Under the pieces are notes generated by a model. That model saw nothing but the letters and a program-made list of their open reading frames with translations. It had not been told where the DNA came from and ran no database searches. Shown here in pieces: positions 4,431 to 37,863 of a DNA stretch of 64,000 nucleotides (its first letter is position 1; each line of letters starts with the position of its first letter). Made by a program: the position numbers and the translations under genes. The DNA lies in the IMG/VR virus record IMGVR_UViG_3300014202_000529, positions 32,001 to 96,000 of that record, one strand, 5' to 3'. This stretch comes from a virus. Its lineage: Duplodnaviria > Caudoviricetes.

Positions 4431-4587
4431 ATCTTAAGTTCCAATAATAACCAGCCCCATTCTCATTGGACTCTAGGGTACAATGACATTCAGTGCACCC
4501 CACCTGACATGATTGTCTTCCTGTACCAACTCGCACAACCTCTGCTTCCCCACCACAGAAAGGACAGGGTTTAAGCTGCAGCGTCAT
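4408..4587 (-). CDS. Lar-family restriction alleviation-like zinc-ribbon protein (59 aa; missed by ORF track)
   Basis: Manual translation MTLQLKPCPFCGGEAEV...VGCTECH...WNLR. Confidence 0.7.
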   Translation of the reverse strand: MTLQLKPCPFCGGEAEVVRVGTGRQSCQVGCTECHCTLESNENGAGYYWNLRYEPGQSD

Positions 4588-4732
4588 CTTTCTTACCCCG
4601 ATCCCTGTACTCCTTTTGAATCGCTGTTTTCTTTTCGGGAGTCAGTTTGGTGTACTCCGTATGGGTCATATTCTTCTTGAATTCGAGCCAGCTACGGAAC
4701 TGTGCCTTGGTTCCTGTCTTCGTATTCTCCAT
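4571..4732 (-). CDS. Small hypothetical protein ending DDAAA (53 aa)
   Basis: Manual translation MENTKTGTKAQFRSWLEF...KKDDAAA; GAGGG SD. Confidence 0.5.
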   Translation of the reverse strand: MENTKTGTKAQFRSWLEFKKNMTHTEYTKLTPEKKTAIQKEYRDRGKKDDAAA

Positions 4733-4767
4733 GATCCCTCAGTGCTCCGGTATTGGTTAATTATGTA

Positions 4768-11430: not shown

Positions 11431-12633
11431 CTACCCCTTCATGCAAAGAACCTGTCGGAGTTCTGCAACCACCTTTACAAGATCCGTCTGATCTGACATA
11501 ACCTGATCAATTGACTTATACGCTGCTGGAATCTCATCAATGACCCCCGCATCTTTACGGCAGACAATCCCCTCAGTCTGTTTCGCAACATCCTCAACCG
11601 TATACTTTTCCTTCGCTGCTCCCCTTGACAGGACCCTACCTGCACCATGTGAGCATGAACAGAATGAGTCTTTGTTGCCCAATCCCTCTACGATGTAGGA
11701 GCGAGTTCCCATAGATCCTGGGATAATTCCAAAATCACCCACGCGAGCACGAACTGCCCCTTTGCGAGTGACAATCACATTCTCACCAAAATGGTTCTCT
11801 CGCTCTGCATAGTTGTGGTGACAATTCACTGTCAAAAGTGGTGTAATATCGGGCGCATGGTCCTTATCAGAACCATACAACGCTTCGGACAATGAAGACA
11901 TTGCCAAAGACATCATAAGCTCACGATTCCTCATAGCATAGGACTGAGCCCACTGCAAATCTTGCCAATACTCGTTGAACAATTTATGACCTTCTGGAAG
12001 GTATGCAAGGTCTGGATTTTCTAGCTTGATCATGAATGCTTTCATTAAGTCTTTTGCTCGATCAATGTAATAATTTCCAATGACGTTACCAATTCCACGC
12101 GAACCTGAGTGGAGCATGATCCACACTTGATCCTGGGTATCGAGGCACACTTCAACGAAATGATTCCCCCCACCCAACGTTCCGAGTTGAGCCAACATTT
12201 TGCTCTCACGATCCTTTTGTATTTCCTCTGGTAAACTCTTGAACCCAATCATTCCATGCCAATAGAGGGTGGATAATATGGGGGTTTTGTGTTGGTCCTG
12301 TCCAACCGGAATTTTCTTAGAGAGGATCGAAAATAAATTATCTAAGTTATCATCTAAATCATTGGAATTCAACGGCAACTTTGCTGCCATCATCCCGCAA
12401 CCAATATCAACCCCAACTGCTGCAGGGGAAAGTGCTCCCTTTGTTGCCACAACAGATCCTACCGTAGCACCCTTACCAAAGTGAACATCGGGCATGGCAG
12501 CAACATGCTTGAAAACAAATGGAAGTCCCGCAGTCTGACGTAGTTGTGTCTCAGACTTGGTGTCTACGTTATGAGTCCAGATCTTGACCGGAACTGTTTG
12601 CTTTTCACCTGTTAACACTTTTGCGATTGGCAT
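11431..12633 (-). CDS. rtcB: RtcB RNA 2',3'-cyclic phosphate/5'-OH ligase
   Basis: MPDVHFG, VGVDIGCG, GTLGGGNHFVE, MLHSGSRG, HHNYA, IPGSMG, SHGAGR, DEIPAAYK. Confidence 0.97.
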   Translation of the reverse strand: MPIAKVLTGEKQTVPVKIWTHNVDTKSETQLRQTAGLPFVFKHVAAMPDVHFGKGATVGSVVATKGALSPAAVGVDIGCGMMAAKLPLNSNDLDDNLDNLFSILSKKIPVGQDQHKTPILSTLYWHGMIGFKSLPEEIQKDRESKMLAQLGTLGGGNHFVEVCLDTQDQVWIMLHSGSRGIGNVIGNYYIDRAKDLMKAFMIKLENPDLAYLPEGHKLFNEYWQDLQWAQSYAMRNRELMMSLAMSSLSEALYGSDKDHAPDITPLLTVNCHHNYAERENHFGENVIVTRKGAVRARVGDFGIIPGSMGTRSYIVEGLGNKDSFCSCSHGAGRVLSRGAAKEKYTVEDVAKQTEGIVCRKDAGVIDEIPAAYKSIDQVMSDQTDLVKVVAELRQVLCMKG

Positions 12634-13209: not shown

Positions 13210-13626
13210 TTATCGACCACCAACCAAGCTCTCTAGCTCTCTCTGCGCCCATTTCATGTACTCTGCACCTTCATGCGTATGAAAGAAATAATCAACATTT
13301 CCCTGTCTCAGTGTCTCAATCATATAAAGGGACTTTTTGTAGTTTTCTCTCTTCTTTTGTATATCTGCCTGTTCCTTTTGGAATAAGGATATAGCTTTTA
13401 GTTTTTCTGTCTCTTCTTCACAAACCTCATCCTCAAGTGAACTGATCATATTTTGAAGTGATTGTATCTCAGACTTCAGCCCATCATTCTCAGATTTTAC
13501 TGAAACCAAACTCTCTTCTGCTTGTCTCCGAAGCTCTTGAGAAGACCGTAGATCAAGTTTCAGATTATGAATATGATCCCTCAGATCTTCAATCTGTTCG
13601 AGCAGGTTATCTGTTGCTTTACTCAT
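13210..13626 (-). CDS. Coiled-coil hypothetical protein
   Basis: Heptad-rich ORF in operon. Confidence 0.5.
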   Translation of the reverse strand: MSKATDNLLEQIEDLRDHIHNLKLDLRSSQELRRQAEESLVSVKSENDGLKSEIQSLQNMISSLEDEVCEEETEKLKAISLFQKEQADIQKKRENYKKSLYMIETLRQGNVDYFFHTHEGAEYMKWAQRELESLVGGR

Positions 13627-14821
13627 AATCCCTAACCGCTATCCCAACTGGGAAAATCGGAATACCTTCATCCGAAAGGGTTTGGTAACGAACGGTCAAT
13701 TGCTTCCCCATATATGATTTTCTGTTGTTCCACTGCTCTTCTCTCTCTACCATCGTAGCTTTACAGCGGACATCAAATGTTCCATCACCATATACCCCAC
13801 CGGTTTTTGATGAGGTTTGGCAACGAAAGATTGCTTTATGTTCGTCTTTACCCCTTCCATCCTTACATCCAACGATTTCAAATTCTTCATCGACAAAATC
13901 TTTATATTTCTGCAACTGGTTGTCTCGATACTGAAACCGATAAGCGTCATTCGAATCTGAGCGCACAATGGACCCCTCATACCCCTGCTCAACAAATATA
14001 CCATGCATCGCTTTCATTTCTGTCTCGTTCAGAACCACTACAGTTTTAACAAACGAGAGATAGGGGACGTTAAGACTGTTTGGGAGTTTCCCATGCCACA
14101 GGATATACCGCTTCTTAAACCCACCCTCTGAAGACGCTCGATCATAACAATGAAAGTGGACATGTTTCTTTAGTGTGTCAATGTCTGGGGTCTTTTCGTC
14201 CTTAATTGCAGAGATAAGCTGCTGGAAAGTCAAATCCCCATGATTATACATTTCACCATCAAGTATCTCACCATCCTTCATGAAAGAAAGAAACTGAGGG
14301 TTCATGTACAAGCTGAAGTTCTTATAGATTTTTCCTTTCCTGGACCAATAGAAAATATTATCTCCCTTACGCTCAACCAAGCAACGAACACCATTCAACT
14401 TTGGTTGGACGAATGCGGGCCACTGTATATACTTTTTCCGCTCGTTGAATTTTTGTGCCAACATCGGTAGAAGTTTGGAACCACCAACAGAACTTCCATC
14501 ATTGTCCTGTTCGTCTGTACCTTCACCAGACTTAGGAACAACCTCTGAATAATTCTTGTCATACTGCTTCTTTAATTTTGACTCCGCTTCCAAGCATGCT
14601 TGCACGAAATGATCCGTCTCGTTGGAGCGACCGATGTTTTTCCCCTCGGTGACCGTCTGGTGTGAAATCTGCATCTTCCCATTCATTTGACCGTGCTTGG
14701 TGAAAATGACAGAAGAATCCACTTTCCTCTCAACCCAAATCGTCCATACCTTCACCACACCTTTTGAGGAAAGACCATAGAGGATTGGATAGGTGGAAAT
14801 ATCGGGCATATTATTCTCCAT
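13619..14821 (-). CDS. ATP-dependent DNA ligase
   Basis: PMLA, QPKLNGVR (motif I), LDGEMY, GYEGSIVR, KYKDF, OB-fold C terminus. Confidence 0.93.
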   Translation of the reverse strand: MENNMPDISTYPILYGLSSKGVVKVWTIWVERKVDSSVIFTKHGQMNGKMQISHQTVTEGKNIGRSNETDHFVQACLEAESKLKKQYDKNYSEVVPKSGEGTDEQDNDGSSVGGSKLLPMLAQKFNERKKYIQWPAFVQPKLNGVRCLVERKGDNIFYWSRKGKIYKNFSLYMNPQFLSFMKDGEILDGEMYNHGDLTFQQLISAIKDEKTPDIDTLKKHVHFHCYDRASSEGGFKKRYILWHGKLPNSLNVPYLSFVKTVVVLNETEMKAMHGIFVEQGYEGSIVRSDSNDAYRFQYRDNQLQKYKDFVDEEFEIVGCKDGRGKDEHKAIFRCQTSSKTGGVYGDGTFDVRCKATMVEREEQWNNRKSYMGKQLTVRYQTLSDEGIPIFPVGIAVRDYE

Positions 14822-28513: not shown

Positions 28514-29047
28514 CTATTTCAATTCGACATTCCAGTACAAGTAATCTGCCCATGTTTCTGGCATCTTGCGCAATCCCAACGTCACTGTTACCACTTGGGA
28601 CCATACTGGTTGCTTAGGTTTCTTGAGCAACTTCATTCCTGCTTGCTCTGGTGTCCTACCCTCTTTCTTAGAGTTACATGGGACACATGCCGTTACAATG
28701 TTCTCCCAAGTCTTCGTTCCACCCTGAGCAACCGGTTTCACGTGGTCAAATGTCAACTCTTCTGATTCAAACTTTTGAGCACAGTACTGGCAATGAAAAC
28801 CGTCCCTAGTGAAAATGTTCAAACGAGTAAATTTCACTGGTGCTTTTCTGCGAAAACGAACCGGAACCAACATCCTCAACACCGAAGGAATCTTCATGCT
28901 AAACGAAATAGAATGGATTTCCTCTTCGTGCTCTTCAATAACTTCTACTTTACCAGTCCAGAGCAAAGTGATTGCTCGCTGCCAATTGACAACTTGTAGA
29001 GGTTCATATGAGCTGTTCAAGAGCAATGTCATATGCATGATAACCAC
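28514..29047 (-). CDS. HNH endonuclease (McrA-like)
   Basis: LLLNSSYEPL, RDGFHCQYC, TFDHVKP..QGG..TWENIVTAC..CN.KK; own promoter TTGACA-17-TAGAGT. Confidence 0.93.
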   Translation of the reverse strand: MVIMHMTLLLNSSYEPLQVVNWQRAITLLWTGKVEVIEEHEEEIHSISFSMKIPSVLRMLVPVRFRRKAPVKFTRLNIFTRDGFHCQYCAQKFESEELTFDHVKPVAQGGTKTWENIVTACVPCNSKKEGRTPEQAGMKLLKKPKQPVWSQVVTVTLGLRKMPETWADYLYWNVELK

Positions 29048-29099
29048 CCTCCAGTTTCCACTACTCTAACACACCACAATTCACTTGTCAACTAGTATT

Positions 29100-29173
29100 T
29101 GGCATGGGATGCAGGAGTCGAACCTGCGCCGGCTGTTTTGGAGACAGCAATGCTACCGTAACACTTATCCCAT
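29100..29173 (-). tRNA. tRNA-Trp(CCA)
   Basis: Cloverleaf, CCA. Confidence 0.9.
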
Positions 29174-29178
29174 ATATT

Positions 29179-29252
29179 TGGTACGCCTCCACAGAATTGC
29201 ACTGTGATCTCCCGCTAATCAGGCGAGGGTACTGCTGTTGTACGAGAGGCGT
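29179..29252 (-). tRNA. tRNA-Ile(GAT)
   Basis: Cloverleaf, CCA. Confidence 0.85.
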
Positions 29253-29261
29253 ATTAAATTT

Positions 29262-29336
29262 TGGTGGAGGCTGGCGGTTCTGCCCCGCCGACTTCTCGGT
29301 GCAAGCGAGATGGTTTCCTAATTAGCCTAAGCCCCC
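29262..29336 (-). tRNA. tRNA-Ala(TGC), first gene of the array
   Basis: G3:U70, CCA. Confidence 0.85.
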
Positions 29337-29374
29337 AAAAAACAAAAAGCCGAAGGGTGTCTCTCCCCTCGGCT
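29337..29374 (-). terminator. Intrinsic terminator immediately upstream of the first tRNA (attenuator)
   Basis: AGCCGAGGGG-AGAGACA-CCCUUCGGCU followed by UUUUGUUUUUU. Confidence 0.85.
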
Positions 29375-29421
29375 CCATCTTTCCGTTTCCCCAGTAGCAC
29401 TGGGGAGTTGTGCTACCGATC

Positions 29422-29529
29422 TTATTTTTTACCTGTTGCTTCATTAATACGGGCGAGTGGTTGCCATCCCATATAAAAGGGTGAATTATGAGTATTGATA
29501 TCTTTTAAACCACCTATAGAACTCTGCAT
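29422..29529 (-). CDS. Putative attenuator leader peptide MQSSIGGLKDINTHNSPFYMGWQPLARINEATGKK
   Basis: AAGGAAG SD, 35 codons, lies between the promoter and alternative hairpins/terminator. Confidence 0.65.
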   Translation of the reverse strand: MQSSIGGLKDINTHNSPFYMGWQPLARINEATGKK

Positions 29530-29540
29530 GACTTCCTTAC

Positions 29541-29569
29541 ATGATACTCGAAAATGATTATGATGTCAA
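29541..29569 (-). promoter_or_regulatory. Promoter of the tRNA array leader
   Basis: TTGACA-17-TATCAT. Confidence 0.75.
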
Positions 29570-29851
29570 CAACTATTTAGCAAACTTAAACTTATTTATA
29601 ATACTTTTACTTTTGTGGTACTAACCCATCGAATTGAAAGCCAAAAATCCTCACATACCTGTATATATATGAAGAATTGTACGATGTTTCCCCATACGCA
29701 AAACACCATTTCCTGAAACTATTGCACTGACCCACGCGCACATACCCATCATAATGTAATTTGGTCATTTGTCACCCCAATTGTCTTAGTGTGGGATACA
29801 TGATAACACAGAATAGATGAGTATGTCAACACCCATTCCAAATACTGATTA

Positions 29852-31108
29852 TTATGCTCGATACTGGACCACTACGCGATGCTGTTCCAAGGTTATTATA
29901 TCAGTTGGTTCAACCACCTTACTGCAGGAGAAATAAACTACCCAATCACTATCAGTGTTGATTGCATGGTTGGTATTGACGTTTGCAGAAGTGCTGCCCC
30001 CATAAAAATTTTGCACTGCGAGGGAACTTATTTGTTGTTGTGTATTTCCACGGTTATAGATGATTCCAGATTGATGGAAGGATATATGATTTGTTGCTGT
30101 GATACTATTGATAATCTGACTAGCAGGGCCCAATGCTCGAATACTTATTATCTTGTTGTTGACTGTTCCCCCCATCGTCCAGGTTGCAAAACACTGGACC
30201 CAACCATTTGGACCCATAGATCCACCCGGCACAGTAACCGTTGCCATCGTTTGGAAACCTGTGGTATTTGACGCCACCACCGGAATGGCACTACTAAACA
30301 CTGCAACAGGTTGGTTGTTTGATAATATTAGTGCCGCATTAGAATGGGCTCTTGCATATTGGTCTGTTGTGTTTGCCACTGCAACTGTGACTACATCTGT
30401 GCTTTGATTTGTGGTGATGCTGATACCATCCCCAGCTACCAATGTCAAAGTGTCTGCATTTGCGTCAGAAACAATATTATTTTGACCTGATACTGAAATA
30501 GTAGAAAAGCTATTGATAGAAGATGAAATGGTTATGGTGTTGTCCGACCCGGACACATCGATACCAGAACCAGGAGAAAGCACAACAACATCTGCATTGC
30601 TCTCTGCGAGCAAGCTTCCCTTATCCTGGATGCCAATAGACGAAAAAGCATTCTGTGCTCTAAGGTTTGCCAAATCAAAAGAAGAATTGGAATGGGCGCG
30701 GGCAAACCCATCCAGTGCTGTTGATGTAACAGTAATGGTGTTGTTCCCCGGATCTGTGGTGATGGAAGTTCCAGTTCCGGGCGTGATTACTAAAGTATCA
30801 GAATTGGATGCAGCAACAATGTTGTTTTGCCCAGACACTTCGATTGTCACAAATGCATCCTGCACTGTGGAATTTGCCTTCTCGAATGCGGCATTTGCTA
30901 CAGTTCTTGCTTCATCATCTGAGTTTCCGTTTGAAATGGTAGTGTTCGCCCCACCAGGTGTTGCTCCATCGCTTAAACGAATAGATCCAGCACCCGGATC
31001 ATAAAACAAATCACCAGGTTGACCAATGAAATTAGTGACTTGCGTTCCACCTAGTTTTTGTACAAGTACTTTATACGTAACGTTGTTCGCCATAATACCC
31101 CCAGACAC
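29852..31108 (-). CDS. Fibre/virion adhesin-like protein, paralogue 3
   Basis: N-terminal GDLFYDP..IRLSDG.TPGG module, repeated DTLTL.AG.GISITT units. Confidence 0.6.
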   Translation of the reverse strand: MSGGIMANNVTYKVLVQKLGGTQVTNFIGQPGDLFYDPGAGSIRLSDGATPGGANTTISNGNSDDEARTVANAAFEKANSTVQDAFVTIEVSGQNNIVAASNSDTLVITPGTGTSITTDPGNNTITVTSTALDGFARAHSNSSFDLANLRAQNAFSSIGIQDKGSLLAESNADVVVLSPGSGIDVSGSDNTITISSSINSFSTISVSGQNNIVSDANADTLTLVAGDGISITTNQSTDVVTVAVANTTDQYARAHSNAALILSNNQPVAVFSSAIPVVASNTTGFQTMATVTVPGGSMGPNGWVQCFATWTMGGTVNNKIISIRALGPASQIINSITATNHISFHQSGIIYNRGNTQQQISSLAVQNFYGGSTSANVNTNHAINTDSDWVVYFSCSKVVEPTDIITLEQHRVVVQYRA

Positions 31109-31121
31109 CTTTCACTATAAA

Positions 31122-32360
31122 TTATGCTCCGTATTGTGCTATTACCGAATACTGTTCTAATGTCACTCGTTCAGTTGCAACCGTTTTAGTCACTGCGAAA
31201 TGGATTTCCCAATCATTGTCAGTATTAATTGTATGGCTAAAACCACCTTCTGAAGAAACCGCACCATAGTAAAACTGAGAAACGGGACCACTAATTTGTG
31301 AATTGACATTGCCCCTATTATGTATATCACCAACCATATACAGCGAAATCTGGTTTGTTGCTGAGAGGTTTGTAAGTCTTGTTCCAGTGGAACTAAGTGT
31401 GCGAATGCTAAGGTCCTTAGCCGAGGCACTTGCATCCATTGTCCACAATGAAACACATTGTACCCATCCATTGGGACCCAATAGACCACCAGGTACCGTA
31501 ACAGTAACAAGCGATTGAGCCGTATTTACATTTGCAGCCAGGGTTGACACCGCAGAGTGTGCGACGATCATAGGACCGGTATTTAGTGCCGCAAATGCAC
31601 CATTCGCATGATCTCTTGCAAATTGGTCAATTGTATTTGCTGCCGAAATAGTCAGAGTAGCGTTCGCTGGATCTGTGGTGATGGATATTCCGTTTCCTGT
31701 TGCCAAGGTCAAGGTATCGGCATTTGCATCTGCAACCACATTATTTTGGCCAGAGACCGCAATGGTCGAAAAGCTATTGATCGAAGATCTGATAATGATG
31801 GTATTGTCAGACCCGGACATATCAATACCAGCACCAGGTGAAAGGATCACACTATCTGCATTCGTGGCTGCAGTTACGTTTCCCTTATCTTCCACTGCAA
31901 TGATGCTGAAAACATTTTGCCCCCTGGTATTTGCAAGATTGAATGCAGAATTGACATGAGTTCTTGCGTATGTGTCGTTTGCTGTTGTTGTGATTGTAAG
32001 AGTAGTATTTGTTGGATCTGTGGTGACTGATACCCCCACTCCAGCACGAATACGCAATATACTTGTGTTAGATGTCGAAACAATATTATTCTGCCCAGCA
32101 ACATTTATGCTGACAAATGCATTTTGTGCAACACTGTTCGATTTCTCAAATGCCAATGCGGCAACAGTGCGAGCAATAATATCAGTGACCTCTGCGCTGA
32201 CTGATGTGCTTCTTCCACCTGGTGTAGATCCATCGCTTAGACGCAGTTCTCCGCGTCCTGGATCATAAAATAATTCTCCAGGTAGCCCGATAAAGTCAGT
32301 GACTTGTCTACCACCGATCTTTTCAATATAAATTCTATAGGTAACATTATTTGCTGACAT
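31122..32360 (-). CDS. Fibre/virion adhesin-like protein, paralogue 2
   Basis: Same architecture as neighbours. Confidence 0.6.
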   Translation of the reverse strand: MSANNVTYRIYIEKIGGRQVTDFIGLPGELFYDPGRGELRLSDGSTPGGRSTSVSAEVTDIIARTVAALAFEKSNSVAQNAFVSINVAGQNNIVSTSNTSILRIRAGVGVSVTTDPTNTTLTITTTANDTYARTHVNSAFNLANTRGQNVFSIIAVEDKGNVTAATNADSVILSPGAGIDMSGSDNTIIIRSSINSFSTIAVSGQNNVVADANADTLTLATGNGISITTDPANATLTISAANTIDQFARDHANGAFAALNTGPMIVAHSAVSTLAANVNTAQSLVTVTVPGGLLGPNGWVQCVSLWTMDASASAKDLSIRTLSSTGTRLTNLSATNQISLYMVGDIHNRGNVNSQISGPVSQFYYGAVSSEGGFSHTINTDNDWEIHFAVTKTVATERVTLEQYSVIAQYGA

Positions 32361-32436
32361 AATACCCCCTAATCACACCCTTCCTTATATTTATGAACAC
32401 AATCCAAACGACATATGTAGAATGGAAGTATTAACA

Positions 32437-33675
32437 CTAGTCTCTATGATTAACAACTACTCGATATTGCTCCAAGGTAACACCATCAGTAGCTACTGAT
32501 TTCGTCACAACAAACAATATGGACAAATCGCTACTGGTGTCAATGGACGATGTTAATTGGTTAACAGAAGCGGTTGCACCATAATGCGCCGATATGCCAG
32601 CCGGGGCAGCAATCTGAGATGATACGTTTCCTCTATTATAAAATAGACCACCCTGGCGAAACCCAACCTGGGTGGAGAGTGTCAATGATGCAATTGCGAA
32701 TCCTGCCGCAGCGTTAAGTCTGATGCTAACGGGCTTATTATTAGAACCATTAGCGGACCAAATTGCTGTACAGTGCACCCACCCATTTGCACCAATCGAT
32801 CCACCAGGAATGATAACGGTGGCTAATGCTTGTGTTGAGGTTGTGACTTCTGCAACAATCGGAACGGCAGAATGTGCAATAACCACTTCATCTGTGTTTG
32901 CTGTTGTGAATGCTTCGTTCGCCCAATCACGCGAAGTTTGATCGATAGTATTTGCTGCAGTAAATGTGATGGTATCAGTGACAGAATTTGTTGTGATGCT
33001 CACCCCATTGCCAGCTACCAAGGTCAAGGTATCGGCATTTGCATCTGCAACCACATTATTTTGACCAGAGACCGCAATAGTCGAAAAGCTATTGATCGAT
33101 GAAGAAATAGAAATAGTATTTCCATCGATGCTCATATCTATACCAGCACCAGGCGAAAGAATCACACTATCTGCATTGGTGGCTGATATGAGACTACCCT
33201 TATCCTGAATTGCAATAGTGGAAAAAGCATTTCCTGCTCTGACGTTTGCCAGCGCATATGCACCATTCGCATGATCTCTTGCAAATTGGTCAACTGAATT
33301 TGCTGCAGATATGTGCAAACTACTGTTGCTGGTGTTTGTGGTAAGCTGAATCCCAGACCCAGCTACAATGACCAGGGTGTCATTGTTTGATGTTGCAACT
33401 ACGTTATTTTGACCAGCAACGTTCAATGTGACAAATGCGTTTTGTGCTGCACCATTTGCTTTGGTTCGAGCACCCGTTGCTCTTGCGCGGGCATAATCAT
33501 CAGAACCATCGATGCTAGTGGTGACATTGACGCCGCCCATAGTAACACCGTCACCAAGACGCAATTCTCCGCTTCCTGGATCATAGAATATCTCACCGGG
33601 GGCCGCAATGAATTCATCATACGGCATTCCACCAAGCTTCTCTAAAAATACCCTGTAAATTACATTATTAGCCAT
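32437..33675 (-). CDS. Fibre/virion adhesin-like protein, paralogue 1
   Basis: Same architecture; late promoter upstream. Confidence 0.6.
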   Translation of the reverse strand: MANNVIYRVFLEKLGGMPYDEFIAAPGEIFYDPGSGELRLGDGVTMGGVNVTTSIDGSDDYARARATGARTKANGAAQNAFVTLNVAGQNNVVATSNNDTLVIVAGSGIQLTTNTSNSSLHISAANSVDQFARDHANGAYALANVRAGNAFSTIAIQDKGSLISATNADSVILSPGAGIDMSIDGNTISISSSINSFSTIAVSGQNNVVADANADTLTLVAGNGVSITTNSVTDTITFTAANTIDQTSRDWANEAFTTANTDEVVIAHSAVPIVAEVTTSTQALATVIIPGGSIGANGWVHCTAIWSANGSNNKPVSIRLNAAAGFAIASLTLSTQVGFRQGGLFYNRGNVSSQIAAPAGISAHYGATASVNQLTSSIDTSSDLSILFVVTKSVATDGVTLEQYRVVVNHRD

Positions 33676-35524: not shown

Positions 35525-37039
35525 CTATCTAGTTAACTCATGATAACACTTTTCAATATGCTTGTCAACCACCCCATCAATTCTAGAACGAATTGAAGAA
35601 AGGGTATTCAGTCTCACCGAAAGACCATTACTCAGACCATTATGGAATACTAAATCAAGAAGACCCAACCGCATAGAATCTTCTTTTGTTAATTCGTCAA
35701 CTAAAACCAACCCCCCATTACGATCCTCTACCGCAAGATACCCCTTTGCGGATTTCTTTGTTCCATTGTCAGTTTTGGGGTCTTTAAACACGTGAAGCTC
35801 TTTCCCATCAACATATCCCGCAGTCGCTTTAATTGCCATCCCGAATGTATCCCGCGTCACATGTTGATAGGTGTAGCTCCCGATCCCAAACACAATATTT
35901 GTAGAAGCAAATCCAAGCGACATGAGCTGTCTGCAAATTTCATCTGCTCTCTCAAGTGTGATGGAATCTCCATAGATCATTCCAATATGAGGGTCAAGTT
36001 GTCGATATCCCTTTGAGTTGACCGTTCCACCAAATACCTTCCAGAGCAATCGAGCAGTTCCTTCGTTCTCTGGTGTTCCCAATGGAGCATCAAGATCACC
36101 ACAAATGATCTTCACTGGATCTCCTGAGTCTGGACGAATAACAACCTTTCCATCCCTGGACATGATTTTATCTTTCAGGGTTGGAAGTGTCTCTGTTAAA
36201 ATCTTCCAATAATCCCATGTATCGGAGACGATAGACACAATACCCTTTGGATAGACCTTGCTGATCAATCGATCATAGGTTTCTAACTCAGTTTCCTTTC
36301 CACCAAAACACATCACCGAATGCTCCGTTGCAGCAACAGACCCACCAATCATAGTGTCCCCAATGACTGCATGATAATATGTTTCCAGCATATCAATTGC
36401 AGGGATGGTATCTGTTCCATAAAAAGAGAGTAGGTGTCCTGCACTTGACACCGAAGCACTCTCTAGACTCGTCTGACCACGCATTGAAAAGTCATGTCCT
36501 TGCCACAAGACGAATTCTGGAAGATCGGAACTAGCTGCAGCGTATTTTTCCAACAATTTCCTATACTCGAATGCAATGGTGGCTACTGTAATTGGATGCC
36601 AAAGAACCGTTGACATGAGAGTTTCGAGGAAATTGGTCAACCAAAAGAACTTGGGATTAGTGTTCTCAATTGTTAAAAACGGAACTCTTAATGGGACAAG
36701 TGTTCCCTCTGGGAGTGCTCGGATACTAATGGGGAGATATCCCAGATCATGCAATTCCTCAATGTGGTCCAGTGGCACCGAATCGGGACCCAATGAAGTA
36801 TCAAGCCTTCGTTTATATTTGAGAAGTACTTCCTCTTTTGGTTTATTGAAAAAGTTTTCGTTGAACTCCTCGATCAAATATTTCTTGATAAAGTATTGGA
36901 GACCGAAGAATACAACATGATTCACACCAGGGATTCTAGAGCTTCGCGCCGTCATGTTCGAGTAGACGTACTGAGTATTTTCTGGGTACTGTCTACGATG
37001 ATCGGTTTTGTAGAAATCGCTGTAGTGAATCGGGGTCAT
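35525..37039 (-). CDS. nadV: Nicotinamide phosphoribosyltransferase-like (NadV / Namat of NARP1)
   Basis: DFYKTDH, HDFSMRG, ATEHSVM, SIVSDTWD, IRPDSGDP, YGDSIT, TRDTFG.A.KAT. Confidence 0.93.
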   Translation of the reverse strand: MTPIHYSDFYKTDHRRQYPENTQYVYSNMTARSSRIPGVNHVVFFGLQYFIKKYLIEEFNENFFNKPKEEVLLKYKRRLDTSLGPDSVPLDHIEELHDLGYLPISIRALPEGTLVPLRVPFLTIENTNPKFFWLTNFLETLMSTVLWHPITVATIAFEYRKLLEKYAAASSDLPEFVLWQGHDFSMRGQTSLESASVSSAGHLLSFYGTDTIPAIDMLETYYHAVIGDTMIGGSVAATEHSVMCFGGKETELETYDRLISKVYPKGIVSIVSDTWDYWKILTETLPTLKDKIMSRDGKVVIRPDSGDPVKIICGDLDAPLGTPENEGTARLLWKVFGGTVNSKGYRQLDPHIGMIYGDSITLERADEICRQLMSLGFASTNIVFGIGSYTYQHVTRDTFGMAIKATAGYVDGKELHVFKDPKTDNGTKKSAKGYLAVEDRNGGLVLVDELTKEDSMRLGLLDLVFHNGLSNGLSVRLNTLSSIRSRIDGVVDKHIEKCYHELTR

Positions 37040-37863
37040 ACTGCCCTCCCATCCATTTGTTTTTGATGTTGTTTTGATAACAATGGCACCATTCCCTCTC
37101 TCGTCCACACTTCATCAATAATACCATCAAACACTTCCAGACCCTTAGAAAATATACCATGCGTCACCATGAGAACAATTTTCTTTGGAGCATGATGAAG
37201 TCTAATTTCTTTTGCAATTTCGATGAATGTTCTTCCACCATCACAAATATCATCTACCATCACACAGGTTTTACCGTCTAATTCATGTGCGGGCGCATTA
37301 ACCTTGACTCCGGTAATGTCTCCGGTTTGTGTATTTCGAAGCTTACTGCACTCCACAACCCCCTTAACTTTAAAGGATTCCTTAGAGAGACGATAGATTT
37401 TCTTAAGCGCCCCTGCATCAGGGGAAATGAGAATCACATTATCATCATGGGAAAACCATGAATTCAACATAGGATAGAAAATTGTCGATTGGTGAACGAC
37501 ATACACATTATCTAACAATGCAGGAAGAACATCGGAATGGGGGTCATGTGTTACGACTTCCTCTGCTCCCAACTGATTAATTAACCCACACATCACCTTG
37601 AGCGAAAAACAATCCCCATAATTGGCTACACGATCCTGGCGAGAAAATGGAAAATAGGGAATGATCAATTTATCTATTTTATACCCATGTTGTTTTAGAG
37701 CACTACTCAAAAGTAGTATCTCCATGATCTCCTCAGTGGATTCAAATAACCACTCAACATTCCCCTTATCAGGATATGTCACATCGTCCTCAAGAAGGAG
37801 TTGAACATGCATTTCGCCGGCAGGAAATTTGATTTTCTTATATTTCACAAATGACTTAATCAT
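37036..37863 (-). CDS. Ribose-phosphate pyrophosphokinase-like (Prs / Adps of NARP1)
   Basis: FPAGE, PYFPFSRQDR, DPHS, SPDAGA, MVDDICDGGRTF, VTHGIFS. Confidence 0.92.
   Translation of the reverse strand: MIKSFVKYKKIKFPAGEMHVQLLLEDDVTYPDKGNVEWLFESTEEIMEILLLSSALKQHGYKIDKLIIPYFPFSRQDRVANYGDCFSLKVMCGLINQLGAEEVVTHDPHSDVLPALLDNVYVVHQSTIFYPMLNSWFSHDDNVILISPDAGALKKIYRLSKESFKVKGVVECSKLRNTQTGDITGVKVNAPAHELDGKTCVMVDDICDGGRTFIEIAKEIRLHHAPKKIVLMVTHGIFSKGLEVFDGIIDEVWTREGMVPLLSKQHQKQMDGRAV

Follow-up and report, generated by a model that had tools for sequence, protein, structure and literature searches.

We describe a conserved leader cassette that heads the tRNA gene array of an uncultured tailed phage and of its relatives, and whose short leader peptides use nearly every amino acid, a property that is new. 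The cassette lies on the minus strand of a 64,000-nt stretch (hereafter the window) corresponding to bases 32001-96000 of the 168,789-bp virus record IMGVR_UViG_3300014202_000529 (Duplodnaviria; Caudoviricetes), which carries terminal repeats. Reading along that strand, it comprises a promoter, a Shine-Dalgarno (SD)-like sequence, an open reading frame (ORF), 3 nt, a hairpin (S1), a G-run, a purine-rich spacer, an intrinsic terminator with its U-run, and tRNA-Ala (Table 1). A sequence-only reading of the window had proposed a trp/his-type attenuator in which stalling at almost any codon switches on the phage tRNAs; its observations were confirmed and its interpretation was partly supported. 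We consider it rather probable that the cassette is a translation-coupled transcription attenuator, of one polarity or the other. The evidence also leans, if slightly, toward a family of phages (~170 kb) that gauges the decoding of all twenty amino acids through one ORF of 32-39 codons, with ribosome progress setting transcription of a near-complete tRNA set whichever the polarity. The cassette probably ties phage tRNA output to ribosome performance.

Relatives of the cassette and amino acid coverage of the leader

The leader region had no blastn match among GenBank phages, an exact search of viral contigs for the alternative hairpin (S2) returned 0 matches, and tblastn of the neighboring proteins gave distant matches only, to Synechococcus phages S-CAM7 and S-CBWM1, Virus Rctr197k, and Myxococcus phage Mx1 (≤58% identity over parts). 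Relatives were instead reached via the HNH gene behind tRNA-Trp, homologs of which shared 66-92% identity and lay on contigs of up to 178 kb. The loci gathered around these HNH relatives included 32 from viral contigs and the best 80 of 422 from metagenome contigs. An nhmmer profile of six leaders matched 24 of 123 loci, representing 18 distinct sequences with the window included, all of them on uncultured phage contigs where the cassette heads a tRNA array. More distant HNH loci (L021-L030) held no such element, and the element is single-copy both in the window and in the whole 168.8-kb genome (next match, E = 0.16-0.28). The first close relative found, L004 (= G001), ends inside the terminator, of which the 3' arm and U-run alone are readable. 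A TTGACA-type promoter occupies the equivalent place in all 18 leaders. Behind the terminator in the relatives are tRNA genes for Ala, Ile or Asn, and Trp, with Ala at the same first position (hand reading), and a simple consensus scan found no TTGACA-type site within 177 nt past the U-run in any of the 18, the stretch being occupied by tRNAs.

The leader ORF was intact in every one of the 18 sequences, spanning 32-39 codons and always ending in TAA. Frame 0 contained no stops in any leader, while the other two frames held 1-5 and 0-4 stops, one of these frames being open in L061. The ratio of nonsynonymous to synonymous polymorphism (pN/pS) was below 1 in 23 of 26 pairs (45-99% identity) and 1.0-1.24 in the remaining three, and insertions and deletions in the ORF alignment kept the frame. 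As judged from these sequence patterns, the leader ORF is kept open and coding, and its translation is predicted. Met1 and a single Trp were the only invariant residues (17/17 aligned peptides); LNT and EC motifs recur, and none of the 17 leader peptides matched a Pfam family.

Regulatory codon runs were absent from the leaders, which instead fit 16-20 amino acid types into 32-39 residues. All 20 types occurred in eight of the 18 leaders, 19 types in seven, 18 in two (one being the window), and 16 in one; among 28 distinct family peptides, 14 held all 20 amino acids and 10 held 19. The null mean was 15.1-16.5 types with P(20) = 0.001-0.011, and windows of real proteins from this phage gave a mean of 15.1-16.2 types and P(20) = 0.004-0.011. 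Distinct codons numbered 27-32 per leader (P ≤ 0.05 in 13/18). When 807 distinct ATG-initiated ORFs of 32-39 codons were collected by six-frame translation of the window and every locus, 20 types were found in seven, every one a family member, and at least 19 types in 22, of which 13 belonged to the family. A profile search of 1.84 billion proteins returned 14 matches; 13 were family peptides, two of these identical to known members, and the 11 new members comprised seven with 20 types, three with 19, and one with 16.

The family falls into four sequence groups of 20-38% mutual identity, each with 20-type members. Rare residues shift between groups, Cys lying near position 16 in two groups and position 5 in another, and residues that change position in this way are expected of selection on the set, not on the sites. 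In simulations that began from a complete peptide and randomly substituted 60-80% of sites, at least 19 types were kept in 3-16% of trials; this simulation is the sole correction for the shared ancestry that the coverage statistics carry. The window peptide, MQSSIGGLKDINTHNSPFYMGWQPLARINEATGKK, has 18 types and lacks Cys and Val, as the sequence-only reading had counted, and by itself is not unusual [P(≥18) = 0.11-0.13]. Put to independent sequences, the idea of reading almost every amino acid held up: the relatives fit 19-20 types into 32-39 residues, far above chance, against a P of about 0.1 for the window alone. Taken across the family, coverage as read from sequence supports a sensor reading all amino acids.

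Conserved RNA structures between the leader and the tRNA genes

Downstream of the stop codon, all 18 leaders share a compact series of RNA features. The gap from the stop to S1 is -1 to +4 nt (in the window, S1 begins 3 nt past the stop codon), the S1 stem is 8-12 bp, and its loop of 6-9 nt is C-rich on the 3' side, bearing CUCCCC, UCUCCC, or ACCCCG (hereafter the C-motif); the loop in the window is AACUCCCCA, 29409-29401. A terminator with U-run follows in all 18 (-13.9 to -22.3 kcal/mol). In the window it has an energy of -18.8 kcal/mol and, in its extended form, 12 pairs, making it the strongest among 25 terminator-like sites in 16.5 kb, and it abuts the first tRNA, which starts at 29336; the strong terminator described in the sequence-only reading was thus borne out. 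The C-motif is complementary to the top of the terminator 5' arm and loop (GGGAG, GGGGAG, or CCGGGG) in 18/18 leaders, over 5-7 bp and with -7.7 to -13.3 kcal/mol. The window pairing that had first been pointed out, CUCCCC at 29407-29402 with GGGGAG at 29368-29363, has -12.9 kcal/mol and an equivalent in every leader. C-run length goes with G-run length in 13 of the 14 leaders of the CUCCC type, by a hand count that spans few independent lineages: seven of eight four-C loops are accompanied by at least four G, and all six three-C loops by three G (also counted by hand).

In 14/18 leaders a G-run that resembles the terminator motif, as if copied from it, is found at the S1 3' arm or immediately past it, where it can form S2 with the C-motif (-7.5 to -13.3 kcal/mol). 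S1 and S2 share bases and are therefore mutually exclusive, as had been claimed for the window, where they are nearly isoenergetic (-13.5 vs. -13.3 kcal/mol). The energies of both hairpins, of the terminator, and of its helix with the C-motif all lie within the classical attenuator range. Across positions 28900-30000 of the window, the tRNA model alone passed its Rfam threshold; leader, riboswitch, and T-box models scored far below their gathering scores.

Covariation was judged from single-sequence folds and from a comparison of cognate with non-cognate arms, not from alignments. For 17 distinct S1 arm pairs, the cognate mean was -13.2 kcal/mol and the non-cognate mean -5.4 kcal/mol; ~19% of non-cognate combinations matched the weakest cognate one, and a reading of the matrix showed these to be mostly close relatives. 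The S1 arms co-vary. A further candidate pairing, seen in the window between UCGGU of the S1 5' arm and GCCGA of the lower terminator arm (-7.3 kcal/mol), was rejected as a family feature, the cognate value being -5.0 and the non-cognate -4.7 kcal/mol.

Polarity of the proposed switch and its rivals

Given that S1 begins -1 to +4 nt past the stop, it has to be open whenever a ribosome occupies the stop codon. In the polarity put forward by the sequence-only reading, a leading ribosome that reaches the stop in step with RNA polymerase would block S1, the adjacent G-run would capture the C-motif as S2, the terminator would fold, and transcription would end. Were the ribosome delayed at any codon for want of charged tRNA, S1 would form; the adjacent G-run could not enter the loop of its own hairpin, and the C-motif would stay exposed. 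The exposed C-motif would then pair with the terminator GGGAG as an H-type pseudoknot and spoil the short terminator stem, and polymerase would continue into tRNA-Ala, tRNA-Ile, and tRNA-Trp and onward. Slower decoding would thereby yield more phage tRNA. We advance this polarity, from slow decoding to read-through, tentatively. The C-motif is never part of the S1 stem and always sits flush against the S1 3' arm, preceded in the loop by 0-2 nt. An H-type pseudoknot has this geometry, and both it and the constant loop placement favor the polarity just described. So does the G-run behind S1, which reaches the C-motif only when S1 is open and hence suits a decoy that restores termination upon ribosome arrival. 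In the six leaders of the GNRA-loop group the core terminator stem is ~8 bp (read from a table that also counts flanking A-U pairs), and loop pairing would consequently cover most of it.

The same attenuator could also run with reversed polarity, which we regard as rather unlikely: S1 would form while no ribosome is near or while one is stalled early, the terminator would fold, and transcription would end, whereas a ribosome that has passed every kind of codon and occupies the last one or the stop would open S1, the C-motif and first 3'-arm bases then forming an ordinary nested helix with the terminator 5' arm that permits read-through. If true, tRNA would be made only while all twenty amino acids are decoded, a phage analogue of the stringent control of stable RNA. 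Folding was modeled with a ribosome on the stop as a mask of 14 nt and with RNA extending up to the terminator loop; these folds are nested and do not score pseudoknots. In the masked case the minimum-energy structure joins C-motif and terminator arm in 15/18 leaders, through helices of -6.1 to -18.6 kcal/mol that lie in the classical range, and in L013 the helix extends to 10 bp, takes up the entire 5' arm, and draws on bases that become available only once S1 opens. In the unmasked fold, S1 forms with its loop unpaired and the terminator arm not bound to it in 14/18. Reversed polarity further fits the four leaders that lack S2. It gives no role, however, to the conserved G-run behind S1 (14/18), which would compete with the antiterminator, and the masked fold yields S2 rather than the antiterminator in the window, L014, and L017 (3/18). 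Moreover, the C-motif is never in the S1 stem and hence is not truly hidden by S1, and the ribosome must dwell on the stop, yet the stop is TAA in 18/18, a codon that is read efficiently. Between the two polarities our weighing is close to even, with the logic of the sequence-only reading placed first. In nested models the window leader adopts S2 with or without the ribosome, so that the family evidence is stronger than that from the window alone.

Several results weigh against an attenuator that answers slow decoding with read-through. Nested folding of the masked leaders points the opposite way in 15/18, and the antiterminator, a hairpin loop paired over 5-7 bp with the top of the terminator, needs a pseudoknot; with a pseudoknot penalty of ~9 kcal/mol, its stability would be marginal against terminators of -14 to -22 kcal/mol. 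Four leaders, all of one lineage, lack S2. RNAalifold on a MAFFT alignment recovered only five pairs (-1.93 kcal/mol), and in a covariance-model alignment 58.8% of cells were paired, compared with 51.5% in shuffles and up to 54% in controls slid by +2/+3; we attribute these weak counts to mis-registration of both alignments by bulges and varying loop lengths, and they are still a negative result. The -10 hexamer lies only 11 nt from the ATG in the window and, equally tightly, 9 nt from it in L045. With the 11-nt spacing, and with the SD-like sequence within about 3-9 nt of the -10 hexamer, transcription from the adjacent promoter would begin in that sequence or past it, and only transcripts begun further upstream can make use of it; the SD-like sequence is probably absent from the adjacent promoter's transcripts, and in both the window and L045 this promoter would yield a nearly leaderless mRNA. 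Because later promoters exist within the array, only three tRNAs strictly depend on read-through. Finally, the invariant Trp and the LNT and EC motifs are unneeded by a general stall sensor.

A cassette without any switch is also unlikely in our judgment. In that case the ORF would be an ordinary early phage gene of small size, equipped with a promoter of its own, a stabilizing hairpin, and a leaky terminator, the first tRNAs arising by constitutive read-through; the terminator would do no more than set how much peptide mRNA is made relative to tRNA precursor, and RNase P would cut where the U-run meets the tRNA. Small genes with their own promoters abound in phage early regions (the 53-codon ORF just upstream is an example), the conserved peptide residues are microprotein-like, and the terminator is far stabler than every alternative fold. 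What such a gene leaves unexplained is the presence of 19-20 amino acid types in diverging peptides of 32-39 residues with moving rare residues, the persistent complementarity of the S1 loop motif, G-run, and terminator GGGAG while stems change, and the fixed gap from stop to S1. Amino acid coverage is equally unexplained if the ~190-nt terminated transcript acts mainly in trans as a dual-function small RNA (sRNA), its C-rich loop binding either a protein or ribosome-binding sites rich in G, with the peptide as a by-product or second product. A conserved C-rich loop on a stable hairpin beside a terminator is the layout shared by C-rich-loop sRNAs. An attenuator-derived sRNA, rnTrpL, is moreover described (PMC6614838). 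The best conserved partners of the loop are nevertheless in cis, within the same leader, and the leaders' own SD sequences are mostly AGGAA, with no match to the loop; we hold the trans-acting explanation to be improbable, a trans-acting RNA being possible as an additional function. More improbable still is an arrest peptide, in which the invariant Trp would sit in the exit tunnel at the stop and a hold triggered by a small molecule, as in TnaC, would keep S1 open. The Trp (17/17) lies 10-14 residues from the C-terminus, 12-13 residues in 14/18 by hand count, and this spacing resembles that of Trp12-Pro24 in TnaC, which also has an Asp four residues past the Trp. The leaders have neither a conserved C-terminal Pro nor a conserved Asp four residues past the Trp, the constant Trp spacing may be homology alone, and arrest again does not explain the coverage of amino acids.

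Known systems and the genomic setting of the cassette

Attenuation by leader peptides is established, and so are leader ORFs that respond to translation stress in general. Like the thr and ilvGMEDA attenuators (and those of trp, his, leu, and phe), the cassette has a short leader ORF on the same transcript, overlapping alternative hairpins, and an intrinsic terminator directly before the putatively regulated genes; as in thr/ilv-type attenuators, leader composition mirrors what the operon supplies. Unlike in those systems, the genes concerned are phage tRNAs and not biosynthetic enzymes, and the leader contains no codon runs, nearly all 20 amino acids being represented instead by about one or two codons each. 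Unlike in trp-type attenuators, the first hairpin arm lies past the stop and not within the ORF, and the candidate antiterminator is a short pairing of loop with terminator arm (5-10 bp of complementarity in 18/18), which is a pseudoknot in one polarity. Of the trp/his-type layout invoked by the sequence-only reading, the leader ORF, the maskable hairpin, and a terminator placed before tRNAs with no promoter between are present, and regulatory codon runs are absent.

Leaders of erm and other resistance genes are likewise ORFs that sense translation inhibition. In Bacillus subtilis, bmrB-bmrCD is described as a leader-ORF attenuator sensing general translation inhibition (PMC4191407). In common with these systems, the leader ORF would report the general state of the ribosome rather than one amino acid, with terminator read-through as output. 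They differ in responding to drug-stalled ribosomes and serving resistance genes; their leaders are not reported to sample all amino acids, and they have no sequence relation to the cassette. In Anabaena sp. PCC 7120, a long array of tRNA genes, the trn operon, is induced under translational stress (PMC8421152, PMC10272220); it, too, is a supernumerary array of many tRNAs, and its expression is tied to translation state, as proposed for the cassette. There rtcB is co-regulated with the tRNA array (PMC8421152), and the window contains an RtcB-like gene at 11431-12633. Unlike the cassette, the Anabaena array is controlled at the promoter, by direct repeats and the repressor TrcR (PMC8421152, PMC10272220); the words leader, attenuat-, and terminator are absent from the main text of PMC8421152.

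Full-text literature searches turned up nothing published on a leader ORF or attenuator ahead of tRNA genes in phages, nor on a leader that contains all amino acids. Phages carry tRNA genes, and to our knowledge the regulation of these genes is largely unknown. If the proposed mechanism is true, the cassette would be the first attenuator to gauge how well charged tRNAs are supplied overall, not just for a single amino acid, and would tie phage tRNA output to starvation of the host, to phage-induced tRNA loss, or to tRNA-cleaving defenses; the tie to anticodon nucleases drawn in the sequence-only reading is a conjecture. As a signature, amino acid completeness within ~35 residues is simple and can be searched for; if the proposal holds, it would be a new one for such sensors.

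Table 1. Features of the leader cassette and adjoining tRNA genes, in window coordinates
Feature	Position	Strand	Details
Conserved A/T-rich motifs upstream of -35	29573..29600	-	TATAAATA 29600-29593, CTAAATAG 29580-29573
Sigma-70-type promoter	29541..29569	-	TTGACA 29569-29564, 17 nt, TATCAT 29546-29541; 11/12 consensus positions
SD-like AAGGAAG	29532..29538	-	Direct reading
Leader ORF	29422..29529	-	ATG at 29529, 35 codons + TAA 29424-29422
Switch hairpin S1	29392..29418	-	CGGUAGCAC 29418-29410 with GUGCUACUG 29400-29392, 9 bp
Alternative hairpin S2	29388..29406	-	UCCCCAGU 29406-29399 (C-rich loop segment) with ACUGGGGA 29395-29388 (G-run), 8 bp
Intrinsic terminator	29337..29376	-	Stem GCCGAGGGG / CCCUUCGGC 29373-29349; extended stem 29376-29346; U-run UUUUUGUUUUUU 29348-29337
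GGGGAG, upper 5' arm and loop of terminator	29363..29368	-	Candidate antiterminator partner of C-rich loop
Non-canonical tRNA-Ala(UGC), first gene after terminator	29262..29336	-	Rfam tRNA model 41.9 bits
tRNA-Ile(GAU)	29252-29179	-	ARAGORN
tRNA-Trp(CCA)	29173-29100	-	ARAGORN
Internal promoter-like sites	29091-29063, 26468-26440, 23257-23229	-	Consensus scan

The promoter, SD-like sequence, and 35-codon ORF of the sequence-only reading were all found on the minus strand of the window, the promoter scan being a simple consensus match only. Most relatives (L017, L018, L056, L060, L061, and others) share a conserved ACAGTCGAGAAC-like block that separates the -10 hexamer from the SD; this block is absent from the window and L045. 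Upstream of the -35 hexamer, at a distance of 1-20 nt, a motif like GTTGTATAAATA or TTTGCTAAATAG was read by hand in 17/17 relatives with upstream DNA (among L013-L062). The window versions were not enriched in the window, TATAAATA occurring in four copies (2.1 expected) and CTAAATAG in one (1.35 expected). As a guess, these A/T-rich motifs could be a second promoter or an UP-like element; the motif resembles a T4-type late promoter, and its reading as a late promoter likewise stays a guess.

ARAGORN called 28 tRNA genes, all on the minus strand between 17172 and 29252, covering 19 amino acid types at relaxed thresholds; tRNA-Val was not found in the array even at those thresholds. The genes behind the terminator that lack a promoter of their own are tRNA-Ala, tRNA-Ile, and tRNA-Trp, after which come the next promoter-like site (29091-29063) and the HNH gene. 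Promoter-like sites are thus present near 29.07, 26.45, and 23.24 kb, where the sequence-only reading had placed internal promoters and had supposed that part of the array alone depends on the leader; the strictly dependent part is the three tRNAs named above. The order Ala-Ile-Trp-HNH is conserved among the relatives yet not unbroken: L016, L019, and L020 carry extra protein-coding insertions within the first tRNA group, either ahead of tRNA-Ile or between it and tRNA-Trp. In L013 (~4662-4745), L017 (~4520-4720), L018, L019, and L061, the terminator and tRNA-Ala are set apart by a spacer of 85-200 nt, which is structured and has a block recurring as CGTCTAGTCAACG...CTGAGACTGACTA.CTCAG; this spacer is absent from the window, where the start of tRNA-Ala adjoins the U-run directly.

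The first tRNA-Ala has a G3:U70 pair, the T-loop GGCAGAA, and an encoded CCA. It was not called by ARAGORN at default or any other setting tried; of the two tRNA-Ala(UGC) genes in the window, only the second copy (27744-27671, minus strand) was called. A 79-base stretch at the first tRNA-Ala is identical in contigs of two public runs whose flanks are unrelated, and therefore this tRNA circulates outside this phage; the same stretch occurs with two differences in two metatranscriptome runs. Among public RNA runs, five contained 4-6% of sampled words, and the four examined cover only 29259-29337, the tRNA-Ala-like gene, with unrelated flanks. Matches confined to the tRNA part are evidence neither for nor against expression of the leader.

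Directly upstream of the cassette lies the 53-codon ORF (29607-29768, minus strand), which has its own TTGACA-18-TATCAT promoter-like site at 29829-29800 and no PHROG match. The array is flanked by the RtcB-type RNA ligase gene, an ATP-dependent DNA ligase gene (13619-14821), and a nicotinamide phosphoribosyltransferase gene (35525-37108, minus strand). Three tandem paralogous genes of 412-418 codons (29852-33675, minus strand) also lie upstream of the cassette; only the first ~45 residues of their products resemble a Synechococcus phage S-CAM7 protein, and a copy of TATAAATA is found at 33713-33706, 30 nt ahead of the first of them.

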